Part shown: piece after piece, positions 5,559 through 57,080 of the stretch
How positions within the stretch are numbered: the stretch's first letter is position 1
Layout of the letters: the number at the start of each line of letters is the position of its first letter
NCBI GenBank assembly: GCA_001778055.1
Contig: MFFY01000061.1
Location: forward strand, 515 to 64,514
Reading direction: 5' to 3'
Origin: Candidatus Falkowbacteria bacterium RIFCSPLOWO2_12_FULL_45_13
Lineage (GTDB): Bacteria; Patescibacteriota; Patescibacteriia; Patescibacteriales; GWC2-42-12
Length of the DNA stretch: 64,000 nt
The notes under the pieces: model-generated
The model's input: only the letters and a program-made list of their open reading frames with translations
Told to the model about the DNA's origin: nothing
The model's database searches: none
Position numbers and translations under genes: made by a program

Positions 5559-7199
5559 TTAGATGCCTCTGGCTTCTCCCTGATCCGGAGAGCCAACTTT
5601 TTTACCCGGCCAACGGCGTTTCAAAGATGACCAAAAGTTAAATAATTCCTCGCTTTTTAAAGTCAAACAAACTAAAACATAAACAAAAATTCCCGCCAAA
5701 CCGGCAACTAGGCCTTGAGTTAAAACGCCCCAAAATCTGGTCATGTCAATATTGGCGCCGATAATTAATTTCACGCCCTGAACCGCCAGCCCGGCCGCCA
5801 AAGCGGCTAATAAAAATTTTATGGTTGAAACAAATATTTTAATTTCATCTAACCAGCCAATCTCCAGATTCAGCCACAGCCAAAGCAAAATCAAGTTCAT
5901 GACGCTGGCCAGAGAAAAGGCCAAAGCCAAACCAGCGACGCCCAGGCGGTCGGACAGCCAAATTGATAAAAAAATGTTGGCTAACGCCGCGATCAGGCCG
6001 ATGATAAAAGGAGTTTTAGCCGTCAAACGGGCATAAAAGACGCGAACCAATAGCGGAATCAAGGCTTGGGCGAAAAGCGACAAGCAAAAAAAGCCCAGAG
6101 TATCAATCGTCAGAACCGTGTCCTGCCAATCAAACTGGCCGGTGCCTAAAATAACCCTGATAATTTGCGCGCGCAAAGCCAGCAGAATAACGGTGGCCGG
6201 TATGATAAAAAACAATATTTGCCGTACCGTTAAAGACAGGTCTTTAACCAAAATTTTTTTATCAAAAGCCGCGGCCGACATGGCCGGAAAGGCGGCGATG
6301 GCGAAGGAAATGCCGAAAATGCCCACCGGAAAAGACTGTAAATTGTTGGCTAGATTGAACACCGCCAGCGACCCGCTGGCCAAGGTTGAGGCGATAATAG
6401 TAATAACCAGTAAATTTAGCTGCGAAATAGCCAGGCTCATGGTCCGCGGTACCATCATCAGCCAAATTTTCATGACTTTCTCGCTTCTAAAATTAAAACT
6501 TAATTTATACTTAAAGCCAAGTTGAATCAGGGCAGGAAGTTGAATCAGCAGATGAGCCAGAGCGCCCAGGCAGACGCCCCAGGCCAAACCGTAAATTCCC
6601 CAGCTTGGCGCTAAAAATAAAGCGCCGATAATAATGCCGATATTATAAAAAATCGGCGATAAGGAATAAACAAAAAATCTTTTAAACGATTGCAAGACGC
6701 CGCCGCAGACGCTGGAAATACCTAAAAAAATCGGCGATAAAAACATTATTCTTGATAAATTTATGGTCAAGGCCATTTTCTCCTGATTAAATCCGGGAGT
6801 AATCAGCTTCATAATTTGCGGAGCGAAAATCACGCCCAAGCCACATAAAATTATGAGCCCGACGGTTAAAATGTTTAAGACGTTGCTGGTTAATTCCCAG
6901 GCCTCTTTATACCGATCGCCAAATAAAGAGCGGACTTTTTGCAGCGGTCCGTTAATCAATGAGGTGAAAATCGGAATAAAGCCGGCCGACAGCGCCCCCA
7001 ATATAAGCAAATTAAAAATTAAATCCGGGACGCGGAAAGCCGCGTAATAAATATCCAAAGTATCGCCGGCGCCAAACTGACCGGCTAAAATCCGATCGCG
7101 AAAAATTCCCAAAAAACGGCTGATTAAAGAAGATCCGCCGACCAGCAAGGCGGCCATGGTGATGCTGTTTATTTCGCCATTGAGCAGACGTTTGATCAT
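5559..7199 (-). CDS. murJ: Lipid II flippase MurJ (MviN family)
   Basis: 546 aa polytopic membrane protein. N-terminal motif LISRFLGIFRDRILAGQFGAGDTLDIYYAAFRVPDLIFNLL is typical of MurJ. Confidence 0.9.
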   Translation of the reverse strand: MIKRLLNGEINSITMAALLVGGSSLISRFLGIFRDRILAGQFGAGDTLDIYYAAFRVPDLIFNLLILGALSAGFIPIFTSLINGPLQKVRSLFGDRYKEAWELTSNVLNILTVGLIILCGLGVIFAPQIMKLITPGFNQEKMALTINLSRIMFLSPIFLGISSVCGGVLQSFKRFFVYSLSPIFYNIGIIIGALFLAPSWGIYGLAWGVCLGALAHLLIQLPALIQLGFKYKLSFNFRSEKVMKIWLMMVPRTMSLAISQLNLLVITIIASTLASGSLAVFNLANNLQSFPVGIFGISFAIAAFPAMSAAAFDKKILVKDLSLTVRQILFFIIPATVILLALRAQIIRVILGTGQFDWQDTVLTIDTLGFFCLSLFAQALIPLLVRVFYARLTAKTPFIIGLIAALANIFLSIWLSDRLGVAGLALAFSLASVMNLILLWLWLNLEIGWLDEIKIFVSTIKFLLAALAAGLAVQGVKLIIGANIDMTRFWGVLTQGLVAGLAGIFVYVLVCLTLKSEELFNFWSSLKRRWPGKKVGSPDQGEARGI

Positions 7200-24214: not shown

Positions 24215-24285
24215 TAGAAATTTTAGATTTGCGATTTCTGATTTTAGATTTTAAAATTGCTAAATCGTAAATCGAAAATATTTTT

Positions 24286-24359: not shown

Positions 24360-24401
24360 CTTTTAAATTTACGAATTACGATTTTCGATTTACGATTTAA
24401 A

Positions 24402-27545: not shown

Positions 27546-29501
27546 CTAACTTCTCTTTTTGTAGGTGGTATATAAAACGGTTTTTTCCAATTTCCCCTGC
27601 TTTTTTAGCCAACTTAAAGCCCCGATTGCTTCGTCGTTCTCGTGCGCTCTTCTTATTTTGCTAGCGCCGTCAATTTTATACAAAGCGGCCAATCTTTTTT
27701 TTCTTATTTCGGCCGTGGTGGGAATCGGCTGGCCGCCACCGCCGATACAACCGTCCGGGCAGGCCATAACTTCAATATAATCAAAATCTTTTAATTTATC
27801 TAAGATCGGTTGAATACTGCCAATGCCGTTTACCACCGCCACTCTGACTTTTTTTCCGCCCATCTCCAAATTTGCCGTTTTTACTCCTTCCTGACCGCGG
27901 ACATCTTTAAATTCAACTCTCTGGATCTCGGAATCGCCAAACCTGATTTTAGCTTCTAGGCCCAAATCACGACATACCCGGTCTTGGGCCGTGGCCATCA
28001 AATAAGCGGCGGTCCTCAGGGCTGATTCCATTACGCCTCCCGTGGCGCCGTAGATCGCGCCGGCTCCGCTCGCCGTCCCAAGTGGATTATCCGCCCGTTC
28101 CGCTTTCAAACTTTTAAAATCTATCTTATTTTTCTTGATCAACCAGGCTAATTCGCGGGTAGTTAGGCAATAATCAATCGGCCAATCGCCTCTGATCTTA
28201 AGTTCTTTGCGGCTAGACTCAAACTTCTTGGCCGTACAAGGCATGATTGACACGACCACGATGTTCTTTGGCTTGATTTTTCGGCCCGAGGCCGATCCGC
28301 CTTGGGCGGACATTTTCTCGGCCCAATAAGTTTTAATAATGCCGGCGCTATGCATCTGCGGACTGCGCGCCGTGGTCATGTTAGGAATTAAGTCGGGACG
28401 GAAAAATTCCACATATTTTATCCAGGCCGGGCAACAGGAGGTAAACATGGGCAAATTAGAAATTGGCGTGACCTTACCAAATTTCAAATTTCTAATTTCT
28501 AGTTTCTTGTCTTCATGGTTTAATAACCTCTCTCTTATTTTTAATCTCTCAATTAACTCTTCCGCCTCAACAATGGTGGTAACGTCGGCGCCGAAATTAA
28601 CGTCGAAAACGTAGGCGAAACCCAATTTTTTCAAAGCCGCCACCACCTGGCCGGTCATGACCCTTCCGGTTTCAACGCCAAATTCTTCGCCAATGCTGAC
28701 CCTAATAGAAGGGGCTATCTGAGCGACCAATACCTCGGACTTGTTTTTAAGCGCTTTCTCCACGAGGTGCCAATCGGCCTGCTCCTGCGCCGCCCCGACC
28801 GGACAATGCAAGGCGCACTGGCCGCAATAGATGCAATCGACCTTTCTCCTGTCCGCTTTGGCGAAAGCGAAAACGCCCTTTTCCGTTACCGGTACAATTT
28901 CCTGAGCCACGCCCTTACCCCTTAGTTCCAGATAATTTATTTTCTGCAAATCATTGCAGGCCTCCAGGCAATTCCGGCAATCAATGCATTGGCTAGAGTC
29001 AATTTCCACGGCATTGGCGAATTTATATGTTTGCCTCTTGCCTTTACGATCTTTAAATCTGCAAATTTCAATTTTATACCTTTCGGCCAATTCCAGCAGC
29101 TTGCAGTTAACCCGCCAAATGCAAGTCGGGCATTTTTCAATATGCTCGGCGAATATCAATTCAATATTTAAATTGCGCGAACGTTTGACTCTGGTCGTAT
29201 CGGTTTTTATTTCCATGCCGGCTTTGACTTTTGTATCGCATGCCGTCACCAGCCTGGCCTGCGCCGACTTCGGCGCCTTCATCCCGAAGTCAGGCCGAAG
29301 AGAGCTCGGTTGAACCGAGTCCGCCGAATACGCCACCTCTACCACGCAAATCCGGCAATTGGCTTTAACCGAAAAATCAGGATGATAACAGAGATTAGGC
29401 AACATCATGCCGTTATCTTGAGCCACCCGCATGATAGTCGCGCCTTCATCGCAGATGATTTCTTTGCCGTCTAAATATATTTTAACTTTTTTATCAGTCA
29501 T
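27546..29501 (-). CDS. hydA: [FeFe]-hydrogenase catalytic subunit (HydA/HndD-like) with N-terminal 2Fe-2S and multiple 4Fe-4S domains
   Basis: 651 aa. H-cluster motifs L1 TSCCPAW, L2 MPCTAKKFE, L3 EVMACPDGCIGGGGQP. N-terminal NuoG-like 2Fe-2S domain (CRICVVEV) and ferredoxin-type CxxCxxCxxxCP motifs. Confidence 0.9.
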   Translation of the reverse strand: MTDKKVKIYLDGKEIICDEGATIMRVAQDNGMMLPNLCYHPDFSVKANCRICVVEVAYSADSVQPSSLRPDFGMKAPKSAQARLVTACDTKVKAGMEIKTDTTRVKRSRNLNIELIFAEHIEKCPTCIWRVNCKLLELAERYKIEICRFKDRKGKRQTYKFANAVEIDSSQCIDCRNCLEACNDLQKINYLELRGKGVAQEIVPVTEKGVFAFAKADRRKVDCIYCGQCALHCPVGAAQEQADWHLVEKALKNKSEVLVAQIAPSIRVSIGEEFGVETGRVMTGQVVAALKKLGFAYVFDVNFGADVTTIVEAEELIERLKIRERLLNHEDKKLEIRNLKFGKVTPISNLPMFTSCCPAWIKYVEFFRPDLIPNMTTARSPQMHSAGIIKTYWAEKMSAQGGSASGRKIKPKNIVVVSIMPCTAKKFESSRKELKIRGDWPIDYCLTTRELAWLIKKNKIDFKSLKAERADNPLGTASGAGAIYGATGGVMESALRTAAYLMATAQDRVCRDLGLEAKIRFGDSEIQRVEFKDVRGQEGVKTANLEMGGKKVRVAVVNGIGSIQPILDKLKDFDYIEVMACPDGCIGGGGQPIPTTAEIRKKRLAALYKIDGASKIRRAHENDEAIGALSWLKKQGKLEKTVLYTTYKKRS

Positions 29502-29588: not shown

Positions 29589-30668
29589 TTATTTTAGTAT
29601 TTGTATATTCGTTGTAAAATTCGTTGATTCGTTAGCCTGGTTGATTTGTGGGTAGACATTCTTTAAAAAGCTTCTGATCGGCACAGGCACCGAGCAGCCC
29701 AGGGCGCAAACCGAAGTATCGGCCAGATTGTCCAATAAATTATTAAACAAGACCCAGTCGGTTTTTCCCGCCAGAAAAACCTCGCCCAATCTAAAAGTTC
29801 CTTCGCGGCAGGGCGCGCATTGCCCGCAAGATTCGCTCATAAAAAAATTAAGCCAAGACTTAATGATTTTTTTATAATTATTCTTTGTGATGCTGTAAAT
29901 AGTGATGGAACCCGCGCCCTGAACCGATCTTTTTAACTGTCGGCTATTTAAAACTTCGCCGGCCGCGCCGCCGCCACATTGGACAAAAAAAGGAAATTTA
30001 GGATAATTTTTTGTCGCTTTTAATATTTTCTCAATGCTAAAACTTTCCGGCAAATCATAAACTCCCTCCCGCGGGCAATCGCCGGTCAGGCTGTAAAATC
30101 TTTTATTTTCATATCGATTGGCTTCAACCAGGCTGACATTATAAAAAGTTTCAACGTTATTCACTAAGGTGGGGCAGCCCCACAGGCCGGCGGTGGTGGG
30201 AAACGGCGGTTTTAACCTAGGCTCGACCCTTCGACCTTCAATGGCGTTTAAAATCGCGCTTTCCTCGCCGCCGATATAACCGGCGTTCGGCGGCTTAACG
30301 AAGATTTCAATAACAGAAGATTTCAACAGAACGGTTAATTTTTTTTTCAATTTTTTATTATAACCGTAGTTTAAAAATAAATAACCTTTTACAACTCCCT
30401 TGTCCGCCGAGGCTTTAGCGTAGGCGGATAAAAAATCAACGGCGATTTTCATGCCGTTAATCACCTGATCCGCGTGATGCTCTAAAATATAATCATCTTT
30501 GATCACGCCCGGTTCGCCTTCAGCCGCGTTACAGACCACATAGCATTTTTTTTCGCCTGCTTTATCCGCCAGAGCCTGAGCGACGGCAGACCACTTTTTC
30601 GCCACCGGAAAGCAGGCGCCACCGCGCCCGACCAGACCGGCTAGTTTTATTTTTTCCAGGATATCCAT
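29589..30668 (-). CDS. NuoF-like NADH-binding FMN flavoprotein subunit (hydrogenase HydB/HndC-like, short form)
   Basis: 359 aa. GLVGRGGACFPVAKKW, YVVCNAAEGEPG, GYIGGEESAILNAIEGRRVEPRLKPPFP, PTLVNNVETF, ESCGQCAPCREG. It lacks the N-terminal NuoE-like and C-terminal ferredoxin extensions of full HydB. Confidence 0.8.
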   Translation of the reverse strand: MDILEKIKLAGLVGRGGACFPVAKKWSAVAQALADKAGEKKCYVVCNAAEGEPGVIKDDYILEHHADQVINGMKIAVDFLSAYAKASADKGVVKGYLFLNYGYNKKLKKKLTVLLKSSVIEIFVKPPNAGYIGGEESAILNAIEGRRVEPRLKPPFPTTAGLWGCPTLVNNVETFYNVSLVEANRYENKRFYSLTGDCPREGVYDLPESFSIEKILKATKNYPKFPFFVQCGGGAAGEVLNSRQLKRSVQGAGSITIYSITKNNYKKIIKSWLNFFMSESCGQCAPCREGTFRLGEVFLAGKTDWVLFNNLLDNLADTSVCALGCSVPVPIRSFLKNVYPQINQANESTNFTTNIQILK

Positions 30669-33162: not shown

Positions 33163-33326
33163 TTGTCATTGCGATGATGCAGCTCCAGTTTCTTAAACTG
33201 GGGCTGGAGACGAAGCAATCTCACGAACATCTAAGCACAAAGTACTAGGCAAAAGGAATTTTTAGTACAAGCAAGATATGCGTGAGATTGCTTCCCCCGG
33301 CTTAAGGCCGGGGTCGCAATGACAAT
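33163..33326. repeat. MITE-like structured repeat, copy C (between tsf and the PSP1-domain gene)
   Basis: Termini gtcattgcga...tcgcaatgaca and internal gaagcaatctcacg...cgtgagattgcttc. The central segment differs from copies A and B. Confidence 0.65.
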
Positions 33327-34193: not shown

Positions 34194-34459
34194 ATGTTTA
34201 TAAATTTAATTATTATTTTAAAAGTAAAAGAAAAGTTGCGGGGACTGCCCCGGTTCTTTCTCGCAATATTTTTAATTTCTCCATAAAATTCTACAATTAA
34301 ATAAATTTTTAGGACTTACGCGGTTGACTGAACGAAGGTTTTTCAAACGCATAAGTTCTAATTTTTATAAATTTCGGAAGTTTGCTCCCCCGAGTCAAAC
34401 GCGAAATTGCGAAGTTTATAGGAATTGATGGAAGTTTACTATTTTATTCATCAAACAAT

Positions 34460-38195: not shown

Positions 38196-39248
38196 ATGAC
38201 CATCAGCCAGACTCTTAAATTTGCCACGGACAAATTAAGCGCCAAGAAAATAAAACTTCCGCTCCTTGAGGCGGAAATCTTATTATCCAGCATTTTAAAA
38301 AAACCGCGCGAGTTCCTTTTGACGCACCCCGAATATAATCTGACAGCCGAGCAAGTTTCCCGGTCTAAGTTTCAAATTTCCTGCCGTCTTAAAGGCGCGC
38401 CCATAGCCTATCTGACCGGCCATAAGGAATTCTACGGGCTGAATTTTAAGGTCAATAAAAACGTCTTAATCCCCCGCCCGGAAACGGAATTAATGGTTAA
38501 TGAAGCGCTCAAACTAATAATGCGCGACCCGCTACCCATGACACTCCTTGACATAGGCACTGGCTCGGGGTGCATTATTATTAGTTTAGTTAAAAATATA
38601 ATTTCCAAATTTCCTTCGCCAGCCGACGTATCAAATTTTGAATTTTTAGCCACAGACATCTCAAAATCAACTTTATCCATCGCCAAACAAAATGCCAAAC
38701 TACATGGTCTCAACAAAATAAAATTCATCCACGCTGATCTATTAAGTCCGTCGGTTAAATCGAAAATCGAAAATCTTCGCCAGAGGCGCCCTGCCCGCCG
38801 GCAGGCAGGGATCTCCGCCCAAGGCGGACCAGCCTCTGGCTGGCGCGACAAACTCTGGCGGAGAAAATCGAAAATCTTTTTGGCTAATCTGCCCTACGGC
38901 TGGAAAGCCTGGAAAAATAATTGCTCCCTGGACACGATTGGCCTGAAATTTGAGCCCGAGCAGGCGCTTTTTACCGGCGAAAACGGCTTGGAGCTCTATA
39001 AAAAATTGTTTAGACAAATAAAAAATTTAGCCATCCAACCTGCCGCCTGTCATATATTATGCGAATTTGACCCGCGGCAAACCGCGAAGATCAAACAGCT
39101 CATCAAACAAGAACTGCCTTGGGCCGAATGCCAAATAAAAAAAGACCTGGCCGGCCTTAATCGCTTGGCAATTGTAAGATACTGCCGCCGAATGCCGCAT
39201 TCGGCGGCAGTCCCATCACCACTTCCGCTTAACAATCACAACCAATAA
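38196..39248 (+). CDS. prmC: Release factor glutamine N5-methyltransferase PrmC (HemK) with an in-frame insertion of about 45 aa
   Basis: 350 aa. SAM-binding LLDIGTGSGCI and catalytic NLPY (NPPY variant). Conserved prfA-prmC order. The extra segment SVKSKIENLRQRRPARRQAGISAQGGPASGWRDKLWRRKSKIF is encoded by a palindromic element. Confidence 0.85.
   Translation: MTISQTLKFATDKLSAKKIKLPLLEAEILLSSILKKPREFLLTHPEYNLTAEQVSRSKFQISCRLKGAPIAYLTGHKEFYGLNFKVNKNVLIPRPETELMVNEALKLIMRDPLPMTLLDIGTGSGCIIISLVKNIISKFPSPADVSNFEFLATDISKSTLSIAKQNAKLHGLNKIKFIHADLLSPSVKSKIENLRQRRPARRQAGISAQGGPASGWRDKLWRRKSKIFLANLPYGWKAWKNNCSLDTIGLKFEPEQALFTGENGLELYKKLFRQIKNLAIQPAACHILCEFDPRQTAKIKQLIKQELPWAECQIKKDLAGLNRLAIVRYCRRMPHSAAVPSPLPLNNHNQ
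38757..38876. repeat. In-frame palindromic insertion element inside prmC (AT-rich arms aaatcgaaaatc..., GC-rich palindromic core)
   Basis: Arms cgaaaatcttcgccagag / ctctggcggagaaaatcg flank the core ccctgcccgccggcaggcaggg. The arm motif resembles the tRNA-Ala flanks at 24262-24395. Confidence 0.65.
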
Positions 39249-39325
39249 TAAAACAGCCTCAACTATTATAAGGCTGTTTTATTTAGCGGAGGTTATGCGC
39301 TCTGGCAAACGCTTCCGCGGCGGAA

Positions 39326-41311: not shown

Positions 41312-41390
41312 AACGCAAATCTCAAATCTATAATTTAAAACTCAAAACTATTATCAAATTTAATGATTTGAACTACAGTTTTGAGTTTTT

Positions 41391-41418
41391 CCGCCGGAGG
41401 CGGATCCGCCTCCGGCGG
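41391..41418. repeat. Perfect 28-bp palindrome (ccgccggaggcggatccgcctccggcgg) nested in a longer AT-rich inverted repeat (aaaactcaaaact / agttttgagtttt)
   Basis: Intercistronic, between a hypothetical gene and the ftsW/rodA-family gene. Contains a BamHI-like ggatcc core. Confidence 0.8.
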
Positions 41419-41479
41419 AGACATTTGAGTTTTGAGATACTAAAACGAGATATTGAAATAGCTTTTCTATAACACTATA

Positions 41480-49243: not shown

Positions 49244-49263
49244 CCTGCCTGCCGATAGGCAGG

Positions 49264-49356
49264 CTCATAACTCGTAGCTCGCAACTCTTTTACCTAATAT
49301 TTTGAGTTATGAGCTATGGGTTATGGGTTATGAGTTACGAGTTGTGAGTTATGAGA
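49264..49356. repeat. Intergenic copy of the GAGTTATGAG / CTCATAACTC palindromic element (same family as the cca insert)
   Basis: ctcataactcgtagctcgcaactc...gagttatgagctatgggttatgggttatgagttacgagttgtgagttatgag, between the hypothetical gene and the dnaE stop. Confidence 0.75.
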
Positions 49357-55210: not shown

Positions 55211-55397
55211 ATATAGAGATGGTTACAAAACTATTTCGTAGCGAAATTTAGATATTTTTCGGCCAGGCGAGGAAAACCAGCGAAATGATTTGAACCGTAA
55301 TAGTATTACGGTGAAAATCATTTCGCGCCAGTTTGACGAAGCCTGGCCGAAAAATAGCAAATTGCAGCAAAAATAGTTTTGTAACCATCTCATATAA
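55211..55397. repeat. Long (about 185 bp) near-perfect hairpin palindrome immediately upstream of tRNA-Leu
   Basis: Nested arms gagatggttacaaaactattt / aaatagttttgtaaccatctc (21 bp, perfect), atttttcggccaggc / gcctggccgaaaaat, cagcgaaatgattt / aaatcatttcgcgc, and the central palindrome ccgtaatagtattacgg. Confidence 0.8.
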
Positions 55398-55425
55398 AGG
55401 TAAGCTCAAAAAATCGAAAATTTTG

Positions 55426-55736: not shown

Positions 55737-57080
55737 ATGAACGAAAACGTACTATTGGTCGGCAACAGCGCCCGAGGGCACGCTATCGCGGAAGCGATAA
55801 TCAGGTCAAAGCCAACTCCGGTCTTGTTCGCCTACATGAAAGCCAACAACCCTGGAATAGCGGCCCTGGCGGATAAAGTCCAAATTGGCGGCTACGACGA
55901 TCTGAAAAAAATCACCGGTTTCGCCCGGAGTCAGGGCGCCAGTCTGGCCGTAATTGATTCGGAAGAGCCATTAAAAAACGGCGTGGCTGATGCCCTGGAA
56001 ATAGCCCGGATCCCGGTGGTCGGGCCCGGACAGCTAGAGACCCAACTGGAAACCTCAAAAGCTTTCACCAGGGAACTGATGAAGCAATATAACGTAGCCG
56101 GCAGTCCAAAATCAAAAACCTTTAGGACTATGGACGGCATCGAAGAATACCTGAAGGAAAATATGCCATGCGTTTTAAAGCCGGACGGACTGACCGGCGG
56201 CAAAGGCGTTATGGTCCAGGGCGAACACTTCAATACCGTGGATGAAGCATTGGGAATCTGCCTTGACATTCTGACGCATCGCCCGACGGTGGTGATTGAA
56301 GAAAAACTTGAAGGCGAGGAATTTTCTCTCCAATGTTTCTGCTCCGGCCTGATTGTTGTGCCCATGCCGCCGGTTCAAGATCACAAACGCCGACTGATTG
56401 GCGATCAGGGATTGAACACCGGTAGTATGGGTTCGTATTCCTGCCCTGACCATCTGTTGCCGTTCCTAACGCAGGATGATTTGAACCAGGCCGTGGACAT
56501 TCTGGAGCAGATCGTCCTGGTATTGTACTTAGAAACCGGCGGTTATTACAGGGGCATAATCTACGGCGGTTTCATGCTGACTGCCCCGGGGCTTAAACTA
56601 TTGGAGATCAACGCCCGCTTCGGCGATCCGGAAGCCATCAACGTCTTGTCGCTCCTGGAAACCGATTTCCTAGACATCTGCCGATCTATCACCTGCCCCA
56701 GAAACTATGGCAAGCTCAACCAACTGGACATTAGGTTCAAACCCCTGGCCACGGTGGTAAAATACGTGGTGCCGGTCAATTACGGCCTGCCCAAAAACCA
56801 GTATGTCCAAACAGCCTCTGATGTTATCCAACTCGACAACCCGGGAGAGGCCCGCCTTTATTATTCATCCGTTGCGAGCAAGCGGACCGTCATTCGCCTG
56901 ACCTCTTCCCGCGCCGTGGCGGTCCTGGGAACCGGTTCCGACCTGGCTGAAGCGGAAAGGATCGCCGAACAAGGGACTCGCGCCGTTATCGGAGCGGTGG
57001 ATCACCGTTCGGACATCGGCACGGCCGCGCTTATCGCCAAACGAGTGCGGCACATGGAGAAGTTAAAAAAAACAAAATAA
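55737..57080 (+). CDS. purD: Phosphoribosylamine--glycine ligase (GAR synthetase, ATP-grasp)
   Basis: 447 aa. N-terminal VLLVGNSARGHAIAEA, ATP-grasp core PCVLKPDGLTGGKGVMV, EEKLEGEEFSLQCF, and ARFGDPE. Confidence 0.8.
   Translation: MNENVLLVGNSARGHAIAEAIIRSKPTPVLFAYMKANNPGIAALADKVQIGGYDDLKKITGFARSQGASLAVIDSEEPLKNGVADALEIARIPVVGPGQLETQLETSKAFTRELMKQYNVAGSPKSKTFRTMDGIEEYLKENMPCVLKPDGLTGGKGVMVQGEHFNTVDEALGICLDILTHRPTVVIEEKLEGEEFSLQCFCSGLIVVPMPPVQDHKRRLIGDQGLNTGSMGSYSCPDHLLPFLTQDDLNQAVDILEQIVLVLYLETGGYYRGIIYGGFMLTAPGLKLLEINARFGDPEAINVLSLLETDFLDICRSITCPRNYGKLNQLDIRFKPLATVVKYVVPVNYGLPKNQYVQTASDVIQLDNPGEARLYYSSVASKRTVIRLTSSRAVAVLGTGSDLAEAERIAEQGTRAVIGAVDHRSDIGTAALIAKRVRHMEKLKKTK

Follow-up and report, generated by a model that had tools for sequence, protein, structure and literature searches.

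What is the additional, arginine-rich segment that lies directly ahead of the catalytic strand of PrmC, the release factor N5-glutamine methyltransferase, in Candidatus Falkowbacteria bacterium RIFCSPLOWO2_12_FULL_45_13, and how did it come to be there? The gene, prmC, is located in a stretch of 64,000 nucleotides of contig MFFY01000061.1, which was analysed as a whole and is referred to here as the window. We put the probability at about three in four that the segment arose as a copy of a mobile repeat, 87 nt long, GC-rich and non-coding, inserted in prmC with the reading frame kept.

A GC-rich segment within prmC

The host gene and the parts of the segment are the following.

38196..39248, plus strand: prmC (release factor N5-glutamine methyltransferase), host of the insertion, an open reading frame (ORF) of 350 amino acids
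38757..38775, plus strand: left AT-rich heptamer array, host sequence (aaatcg-aaaatcg-aaaatc), encoding KSKIEN; homologues have an equivalent heptamer-coded 7-aa repeat
38776..38862, plus strand: inserted element, a GC-rich nested-hairpin repeat of 87 nt or 29 codons, residues 194-222 (LRQRRPARRQAGISAQGGPASGWRDKLWR)
38776..38785, plus strand: left arm of the terminal inverted repeat (TTCGCCAGAG), pairing with 38853-38862
38789..38810, no strand: 22-bp palindrome CCCTGCCCGCCGGCAGGCAGGG with one mismatch, encoding PARRQAG; 0 expected by chance
38814..38843, plus strand: canonical 30-nt double-hairpin module, encoding SAQGGPASGW and matching a module family of at least 119 stretches
38814..38828, plus strand: hairpin A of the module, TCCGCC-CAA-GGCGGA
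38829..38843, plus strand: hairpin B of the module, CCAGCC-TCT-GGCTGG
38853..38862, plus strand: right arm of the terminal inverted repeat (CTCTGGCGGA), pairing with the left arm
38863..38878, plus strand: right heptamer array (gaaaatcgaaaatctt), host sequence, encoding (R)KSKIF, the start of strand beta4

The prmC product scored 208.2 bits against the NCBIfam equivalog TIGR03534 (cut-off 199.1), in two stretches broken at residue ~186, a few residues ahead of the insert, and it contains the N-terminal domain PF17827 PrmC_N (E 2.7e-14) and an intact S-adenosylmethionine (SAM) motif, DIGTGSG. An earlier note on this DNA, made from the letters alone, had placed the segment between the SAM-binding motifs and an NPPY motif. 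The position is correct, the motif is not: the catalytic strand carries NLPY, as do 30 of 30 aligned clade members. That the protein is oversized was confirmed. The search for PrmC homologues yielded 7960, the closest being 60% identical when the source's own sequence is set aside, and those among the matches listed are 275-389 amino acids long, mostly ~300, none with the insert segment. In an alignment with 29 homologues, all of which lack the insert, RQRRPARRQAGISAQGGPASGWRDKLWRR was found only in the window protein, between SVKSKIENL and KSKIFLANLPYG, and its 58 residues there correspond to 22 in T. maritima HemK. Window and homologues share the succession L31, prfA, prmC, L25 and ftsW, the last two on the minus strand. 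Fourteen contigs, drawn from several independent assemblies, encode the exact PrmC protein; three of them were compared as DNA and were 99.9-100% identical to the window. Two proteins of identical length (OGF24280.1 and OGF29883.1), from metagenome-assembled genomes (MAGs) of Candidatus Falkowbacteria, a lineage of the Patescibacteria, fall in the same 90% cluster; given the several independent assemblies, the prmC insertion is not an assembly artefact.

The earlier note had described a 120-bp insertion encoding 45 amino acids, with AT-rich inverted arms around a GC-rich palindromic core and an arginine-rich product. The insertion, its palindromic core and its arginine-rich product, with eight arginines, stand; the size and the inverted AT-rich arms do not. 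In silico deletion of 38776-38862 leaves AAATCG-AAAATCG-AAAATC/G-AAAATCG-AAAATCT, where the slash marks the join, so that the array (AAATCGA)4-AAATCTT is restored together with an in-frame peptide, SVKSKIENRKSKIFLANLPY, which has the 7-aa periodic pattern of the homologous peptides and nearly their length. The insertion point is aaaTC^GAaaa within an (AAATCGA)n heptamer array. The AT-rich parts form a perfect 16-nt direct repeat, GAAAATCGAAAATCTT, at 38762-38777 and 38863-38878 with a spacing of 101 nt, corresponding to 87 plus two heptamers (14), and only the GC-rich arm parts CTTCGCCAGAG / CTCTGGCGGAG are inverted; the terminal inverted repeats of the 87-mer, TTCGCCAGAG / CTCTGGCGGA, comprise 10 bp. 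Removal of 101 nt, or of 94 nt on the assumption of a 7-nt duplication, would break the prmC frame. Since only the removal of 87 nt without duplication restores both frame and array, the insertion amounts to 87 nt (29 amino acids) without target duplication. The 16-nt direct repeat was accordingly discarded as a target-site duplication, as the frame would break and as homologues carry the heptamer repeat without the insert.

In this PrmC clade, AT-rich heptamer repeats code for the loop that precedes the NLPY strand, and the same array type encodes this loop in many prmC genes of the candidate phyla radiation (CPR), for example NSKFVIH-NSKFVIL in L124 and L125 (three-digit L labels denote loci outside the window). 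The L125 loop, TCTAAATTCGTAATTCATAAT TCTAAATTCGTAATT, is composed of AATTCGT units and encodes SKFVIHN-SKFVIL (DSKFVIHNSKFVIL); that of L124 is alike. Three heptamers make seven codons, hence the 7-aa periodic peptide of many homologues, and because these homologues have the 21-nt periodic repeat without the GC insert, the heptamer units probably predate the insertion in the gene. On comparison of these sequences, the array probably already encoded the loop before strand beta4 (NLPY) when the insertion took place at the TC^GA centre.

The insert region is an island of GC content 0.65 within surroundings of about 0.40-0.45, and it folds better than its shuffles (z = -4.8 as RNA and -4.0 as DNA), none of 200 shuffles being as good. 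Its parts follow each other in the order TTCGCCAGAG, GCGC, CCTGCCCGCCGGCAGGCAGG, GATC, TCCGCCCAAGGCGGA CCAGCCTCTGGCTGG, CGCGACAAA and CTCTGGCGGA. Given a length that is a multiple of three and no stop in the frame used, it would be translated as a 29-residue loop.

Copies of the 87-mer at other loci

The earlier note had classed the segment as one of the repeated elements of this DNA, and this class assignment was borne out. A scan of metagenome contigs for the junction of palindrome and double hairpin yielded 16 stretches, 11 of which contain a whole 87-mer; these collapse to seven distinct loci beyond the window, with a mean column identity of 97%. The contigs concerned share only short repeats with the window and no other long similarity. 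In L127, the 87-mer lies in reverse orientation within a 1025-aa ORF that is PolA-like, and in L128 it lies in another frame within a 1208-aa ORF that is helicase-like, both identities being read from the translations and not from a domain search. The peptides encoded there are unrelated to that of prmC. The conserved entity is thus the DNA and not the peptide, as it is kept at 97% identity in other frames and orientation with unrelated products. Judged by its sequence, the 87-mer is itself a dispersed repeat, which the earlier note had overlooked, as it had the fact that the 30-nt core is a widespread module.

Over the eight loci, the window included, the interior of the 87-mer is nearly constant, with four scattered differences, and most of the variation is found in the end triplets, after TCCGCC and before GGCGGA. 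Three of the eight copies have end triplets that pair without a mismatch (AGA/TCT, GGA/TCC and AAA/TTT). Direct repeats of 6-7 nt surround some of the other copies (aaaattg in L127, aaatgtc in L133 and gacattt in L139). The ORFs of L128 and L127 also encode module-like peptides, SAQGGSASGG, RAGGPPAGRAGNP and RQPEAGPSWAEIRLRR, so that single genes appear to carry several insertions there. Within the window, no further whole 87-mer or 22-bp palindrome was found, only partial relatives at 49244-49263 and the modules at 28281 and 41390 described below.

A family of 30-nt double-hairpin modules

The core of the insert has a still wider distribution. The L001 PrmC, a protein only 49% identical, has an identical run of 24 nt, ATCTCCGCCCAAGGCGGACCAGCC, in the same loop and not far from the position in the window, a degree of identity incompatible with ordinary divergence of a coding sequence. 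A scan of one genome per species for TCCGCC-NNN-GGCGGACCAGCC-NNN-GGCTGG yielded at least 119 stretches with unrelated flanks, with hosts that are mostly Patescibacteria and otherwise Omnitrophota, Planctomycetota, Bdellovibrionales, uncultured Gammaproteobacteria, Lentisphaerales, Kiritimatiellia, a verrucomicrobium and a Leptospira MAG. For a mobile sequence, this 30-nt unit is unusually small and has an unusually wide distribution, its 24 specified bases being the same in Patescibacteria as in Planctomycetota and Bdellovibrionales.

The modules have the architecture TCCGCC-nnA-GGCGGA-CCAGCC-Tnn-GGCTGG, and the family consensus is YCNGCC-NNA-GGCNGR, twice. Each stem variant (TCCGCC, CCAGCC, TCAGCC/GGCTGA, CCCGCC/GGCGGG, TCGGCC/GGCCGA and TCTGCC/GGCAGA) occurs with its compensating partner. 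Among 158 modules, the final base of loop 1 is A in 91% and the first base of loop 2 is T in 93%. TT or TC borders the modules on the left and AA or GA on the right, which defines a symmetric TY^RA target. With the help of within-locus repeats, insertions of exactly 30 nt, none with a duplication, could be delimited in L050 (gcagtt^ggctgt), L164 (gtggtt^gaat) and L152 (ggct^gagcgg). The comparison of L146 with L147 was considered as a further clean presence/absence pair and not used as an empty site, the difference being an indel of 50 nt, i.e. the module and 20 nt more. Of the 120 unique module copies among the matches listed, 77 are situated in open frames that reach 150 codons or more, and 44 of these 77 are read in the frame that gives SAxGGPAxGW. 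Some module-bearing open frames look by eye, unconfirmed, like DnaJ G/F regions, MiaA or CCA-adding enzymes.

The window contains two further modules.

28281..28310, minus strand: second module, TCCGCC-CAA-GGCGGA plus TCGGCC-TCG-GGCCGA, in frame in a 651-aa ORF at 27546..29501 (MSAQGGSASGRK)
41390..41419, no strand: third module, a perfect 30-bp palindrome, TCCGCCGGAGGCGGATCCGCCTCCGGCGGA, intergenic, between two minus-strand genes

The 651-aa ORF at 27546..29501, which reads ...KMSAQGGSASGRKIK..., has the look of an Fe-S or hydrogenase-type protein, to judge from its Cys-rich translation. The palindrome at 41390-41419 is embedded in TTTTGAG / CTCAAAA heptamer repeats (flanks 41320-41440); its 30-mer recurs in L136 and L142 with 100% identity over 30-32 nt, and a 43-nt match that includes flanks has 93-95%. 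By its sequence, this palindrome looks like a forerunner of the outer portion of the 87-mer, and the variation pattern of the 87-mer, as far as sequence can indicate, fits an origin from a palindromic 30-mer of this kind to which 57 nt were added at the centre. The 87-mer looks like a merger of small hairpin units, with an outer palindromic 30-nt module (TCCGCC-nnn-GGCGGA twice) that encloses the 22-bp palindrome and the canonical double hairpin. Direct evidence that hairpin units nest in each other is provided by L055 (~6798-6845), where hairpin A of a 30-nt module has a CCTGCC-GGCGA-GGCAGG hairpin within its loop (TCCGCCAGAcccg[...]GGCGGACCAGCC). Hairpins of the CCTGCC..GGCAGG kind, related to the 22-bp palindrome, are present in loci from unrelated taxa.

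Several candidate origins of the module were rejected. A phage origin was set aside, since only one match was found among viral contigs. Reading the module as a tRNA-like minihelix (GGCGGA-CCA) was dropped because CCA is replaced by TCA, TCC or CCC in variants of the family. A multi-copy insertion sequence (IS) of a Candidatus Moanabacter genome, with a 556-aa DDE_Tnp_1 transposase, contains the module ~45 nt inside one end (L034, 1536-3430 and 3847-5740) and is also present in L011, L015, L036, L043, L052, L064, L086, L089, L109, L116 and L122. It was not accepted as the autonomous element, the module being treated as a passenger in view of its distance of 45 nt from the IS end; it probably hitch-hiked on this IS.

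Small GIY-YIG ORFs beside the modules

In the loci selected for their modules, five of the eight small ORFs with a GIY-YIG domain (PF01541, ~80 aa) have a module no more than 125 nt away, and the gene in L017 and that in L050 are each enclosed between modules. The reverse search gave the same association: among 31 GIY-YIG homologues whose ORF call runs on upstream of the start, ~29, as judged by eye, translate a module directly before the conserved MYYVYIL start. Four contexts that were fetched independently show the succession tRNA 5' fragment, module, 10-15 nt (32 in L147), GIY-YIG gene and intact class II tRNA. The recurrent cassette consists of a duplicated 5' fragment of a class II tRNA gene that is cut by a module, 9-25 nt, a GIY-YIG-only ORF of ~80 aa and the intact tRNA. 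It is found in L017 (6491-6847), L050 (4420-4870), L152, L158 and L164 (about 440-1000), L024 (7096-7375) and L026 (1002-1242); the MAGs concerned bear the labels of several CPR lineages and, in one case, that of Leptospira, and the tRNA class was read by eye. L164 has three or more repeats of the tRNA 5' fragment, which suggests that such events recurred. We found no description of the module, the 87-mer or the cassette of GIY-YIG gene, tRNA and module in the literature searched.

Proposed mode of spread

We take the prmC insert to be a tolerated selfish insertion and not an adaptation, and read it as a translated, non-autonomous repeat. As to how such repeats spread, modules could be moved in trans by a nuclease through a hairpin or cruciform DNA intermediate, after which break repair or gene conversion would fix the new copies. 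The best candidate for the nuclease would be the GIY-YIG-only family of ~80 aa, with a module just upstream of its start and class II tRNA genes beside it. The layout of the cassette, together with the analogy to homing endonucleases and GC clusters, leads us to favour a nuclease-driven spread with fixation through repair.

A wider proposal is made tentatively, and we rate it as somewhat more apt to be wrong than right: the 30-nt module may serve in cis for a class of mobile DNA that is so far undescribed, crosses phyla and is driven by the ~80-aa GIY-YIG-only nucleases beside class II tRNA genes, with solo modules and mergers such as the 87-mer as its non-autonomous progeny, which would enter TY^RA sites with no duplication and stay in frame in essential genes of CPR bacteria and of other ultrasmall or predatory bacteria. 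If true, this would be a chromosomal bacterial counterpart of the mitochondrial GC clusters, with an identifiable enzyme. For the movement of GC-rich palindromic clusters, first described in yeast mitochondria, the GIY-YIG link offers a concrete enzyme and substrate; if the nuclease recognised hairpins or TY^RA sites, it would also be a compact enzyme specific for a structure or a site. In addition, many of the "lineage-specific insertions" in CPR proteins may be translated selfish DNA, which bears on annotation, on conserved-gene alignments and phylogenies and on structure prediction.

Several points weigh against the reading of the insert as a tolerated mobile repeat, or against its mode of spread. 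No transposition intermediate was seen, nor any recent presence/absence polymorphism of the prmC copy, whose insertion allele looks fixed. Within ORFs the module is biased in orientation, with 44 copies in frame +0 and 6 in frame -0, which simple neutral tolerance does not explain. The eight added arginines adjoin the active-site strand in the protein sequence and may conceivably affect PrmC function. That the insert is translated at all, we infer from the conservation of the frame. No GIY-YIG gene was found in the 64-kb window or in ~130 kb of the contigs with other 87-mers, and three more divergent GIY-YIG genes have no perfect module upstream. The tblastn matches obtained in the window were weak and spurious, the best lying within a 447-aa ORF at 55737-57080, and were discarded as a GIY-YIG gene.

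Alternative explanations

The alternative that survives best, and that we nevertheless consider unlikely, is that the elements are not self-mobile and were spread by homologous or microhomology recombination and template switching between heptamer arrays, the hairpins being perfected by quasi-palindrome correction. Modules and 87-mers do lie very often within similar heptamer arrays, the constant interior and variable ends of the 87-mer are what conversion into pre-existing sites would produce, and the GC clusters of yeast mitochondria are reported to be exchanged between species at conserved flanks (PMC4478555). Many modules, however, are located in unique coding sequence without array or shared flank, those in DnaJ-, MiaA- and CCA-enzyme-like frames (as read by eye) among them, and the insertion sites have only the TY^RA tetranucleotide in common, while the 24 specified bases are the same across phyla; the tight linkage to a nuclease gene family also argues for an enzyme-driven process.

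It appears quite improbable that the segment is an adaptive lineage-specific insertion, i.e. an Arg-rich loop selected for the binding of PrmC to the release factor, rRNA or another partner, with the palindrome incidental. Its position directly ahead of the catalytic NLPY strand, its eight arginines, the apparent fixation of the allele in several samples and the other inserts that other CPR PrmCs carry in the same loop would all be in keeping with selection. The recurrence of the same 87 nt at ~97% identity in PolA-like and helicase-like ORFs and at several spots outside long ORFs, with unrelated peptides, speaks for the DNA as the unit kept, as do the conservation of the 30-nt core across phyla and its GC-rich codons in AT-rich genomes; furthermore, the insert residues are predicted to be poorly ordered, and their peptide is conserved in none of the aligned homologues.

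An equally poor prospect is a classical MITE (miniature inverted-repeat transposable element), for which a DDE transposase encoded elsewhere would have generated terminal inverted repeats bordered by a long target duplication (12-16 nt, GAAAATCGAAAAT). The terminal inverted repeats of 10-11 bp and flanking direct repeats have the appearance of such an element, several other 87-mers are flanked by 6-7-nt direct repeats (L127, L133 and L139), and one module copy lies inside the Moanabacter DDE-transposase IS. Against this, element plus repeat would come to 101 nt (or 94) and shift the frame that, together with the array, the removal of 87 nt restores; the flanking repeats are pre-existing array units, present in homologues without the insert; clean empty-site comparisons of 30-mers revealed no duplication, and the prmC insert shows none; and the Moanabacter module, 45 nt inside the IS end, is passenger-like. 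No IS with termini matching the 87-mer was found, eight dispersed 87-mer loci being known.

The removal of the segment as a mini-intron, a bulge-helix-bulge (BHB)-type intron or an intein, to leave a mature PrmC of canonical form, is the least credible of all, for although the element is highly structured and modules also occur within tRNA-like sequences, these sequences are 5' fragments adjoining intact tRNA copies, the stretch 38757-38876 has no overlapping match to Rfam covariance models even at E <= 10, 87 or 30 nt are far under the size of group I or II introns and 29 amino acids far under that of inteins, all units are multiples of three, and the single frame shared by 44 of 77 intra-ORF copies, in this and other ORFs, would be unexpected if they were spliced out. 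The absence of any sign of an intron or intein agrees with what the earlier note had supposed.

Comparison with known systems

In-frame selfish palindromic repeats are a known phenomenon; the new features of the present family are its size, its spread across phyla, a defined target and a nuclease as candidate partner. The Rickettsia palindromic elements (RPEs) were reportedly described by Ogata et al. in 2000. Like the mobile repeat that we favour for prmC, RPEs are short palindromic repeats that lie in frame in protein genes, housekeeping genes included, and are translated as extra surface segments while the host protein stays functional; RPE copies are also intergenic, and they encode no transposase. 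They measure ~100-150 bp and are confined to Rickettsia, in contrast to the 30-nt double hairpin described here, which is merged to an 87-mer, crosses phyla, inserts at TY^RA and is associated with GIY-YIG genes. In prmC, a palindromic repeat in frame is compatible with the predicted fold of the host protein, as for RPEs, and the likeness is functional only, the host being Candidatus Falkowbacteria. RPEs are mentioned in PMC1779305 and PMC10969869.

Mitochondria offer a second parallel. For the GC clusters of yeast mitochondria, mobilisation by endonucleases encoded elsewhere has been proposed (PMC4478555), and double-hairpin elements are known from fungal mitochondria (Paquin et al. 2000, as cited in PMC4478555). 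As in the present family, these are GC palindromes in an AT-rich genome, with conserved stems, variable loops, merging and nesting; they are found between genes and also in frame in var1/rps3, and are transferred between species. The GC clusters differ in being organellar, in unrelated sequences and in the putative AG target duplication of the GC42 type, of which none was seen here, where moreover the candidate partner is a free-standing GIY-YIG-only protein beside tRNA genes.

Repetitive extragenic palindromic (REP) sequences, their paired form REPIN and the associated RAYT transposases (PMC3733652, PMC3184786) are comparable in that they are GC-rich stem-loops of 20-40 nt, often paired and non-autonomous, whose mobilisation in trans is thought to proceed via single-stranded hairpins without target duplication. 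REPs are extragenic, have a GTAG or CGTC tag at one end and form families that are each limited to a narrow taxon (PMC3733652, PMC3184786), whereas the modules (TCCGCC...GGCTGG) are untagged, frequently intragenic and cross-phylum. No GTAG or CGTC tag, which PMC3733652 takes as characteristic of REPs, is present at either end of the module, and the extragenic position does not apply, given the 77 of 120 listed copies in long open frames and the window copy inside prmC. Elements of the IS200/IS605 type (palindrome-associated transposable element, PATE-like) have hairpin ends, lack target duplication, insert strand-specifically next to a fixed target of 4-5 nt and depend on a Y1 transposase. The hairpins of the modules and their lack of duplication would fit this type, and the modules show an orientation bias within genes; their target, however, is a symmetric TY^RA cut at its centre and not a sequence 5' of the left end.

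With regard to the nuclease, free-standing homing endonucleases of the Seg type are larger and have DNA-binding domains. The proteins described here have ~80 aa and only the catalytic domain, and their link to solo intragenic modules is one that we infer. T4 SegB is a free-standing GIY-YIG homing endonuclease in a phage tRNA gene cluster (PMC2330249); it resembles the present case in a GIY-YIG gene among or beside tRNA genes, target repeats around it and a spread expected by break repair with co-conversion of flanks.

The insert and the fold of PrmC

An AlphaFold2 model of the window PrmC, built from the alignment, had a mean predicted local distance difference test (pLDDT) score of 83.8. Over residues 191-220, ten-residue blocks scored 59, 52 and 47, with residues 213-221 below 50, and strand beta4 follows the insert at 225-230. 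Compared with E. coli PrmC (2B3T_A, the top Foldseek hit) and T. maritima HemK (1VQ1), the model gave target-normalised template modelling (TM) scores of 0.83-0.85. The simplest reading of the model is that the predicted PrmC fold is intact and that the insert, a loop rich in Arg, Gly and Pro, forms a tolerated, poorly ordered excursion ahead of the catalytic strand.

The insert is not the only addition to this protein. About 20 of the extra residues form a C-terminal extension, outside the segment to which the earlier note had drawn attention, and involve one more feature of the gene.

39181..39209, no strand: separate 29-nt perfect palindrome (13-bp stem, 3-nt loop; CTGCCGCCGAATG-CCG-CATTCGGCGGCAG) at the 3' end of the prmC ORF

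The ORF runs through this palindrome, which adds the ~20-aa extension (RYCRRMPHSAAVPSPLPLNNHNQ; pLDDT ~60), and homologues stop at about NRLAII without it. A likely shared terminator hairpin follows at ~39250-39285.

Other CPR PrmC proteins (P0114, P0035, P0040, P0052, P0085 and P0055) contain different lineage-specific inserts in other loops, with peptides that look like translated repeats (THCSQLATRNSQPATRNPQLATRNS, LPAYRTGRPDRQA, PTGRQV and SAKRAGG). In L003, the site of the window insert is taken up by a 60-nt GC-rich insert with a copy of AATTACTAATTACA on either side.

Heptamer arrays and other repeats of the window

The earlier note had likened the arms of the segment to the inverted repeats around tRNA-Ala. 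The likeness extends to a shared motif, aaaatcg, found beside tRNA-Ala and upstream of tRNA-Leu (9 matches in the window, 2.6 expected), and not to the element itself, as the motif belongs to the heptamer array outside the insert. AT-rich heptamer arrays of the AAATCGN / AATTCGT type flank tRNA-Ala as inverted repeats (24230-24280 and 24366-24395), and another is located at 55409-55422, ahead of tRNA-Leu. GC modules are very often situated within such arrays, both in the window and in the Omnitrophota loci L020, L102 and L106.

Five short stretches of the window (33164-33227, 2319-2359, 34311-34361, 29604-29635 and 55216-55247) match L128, L131, L133, L136, L137 and L139 with 88-100% identity, the surrounding DNA not matching; they represent further dispersed repeat families common to these organisms. 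Finally, the stretch 49244-49356 comprises an intergenic hairpin, CCTGCCTGCCGATAGGCAGG, related to the 22-bp palindrome, followed by CTCATAA-type heptamers and inverted GAGTTAT-type heptamers.

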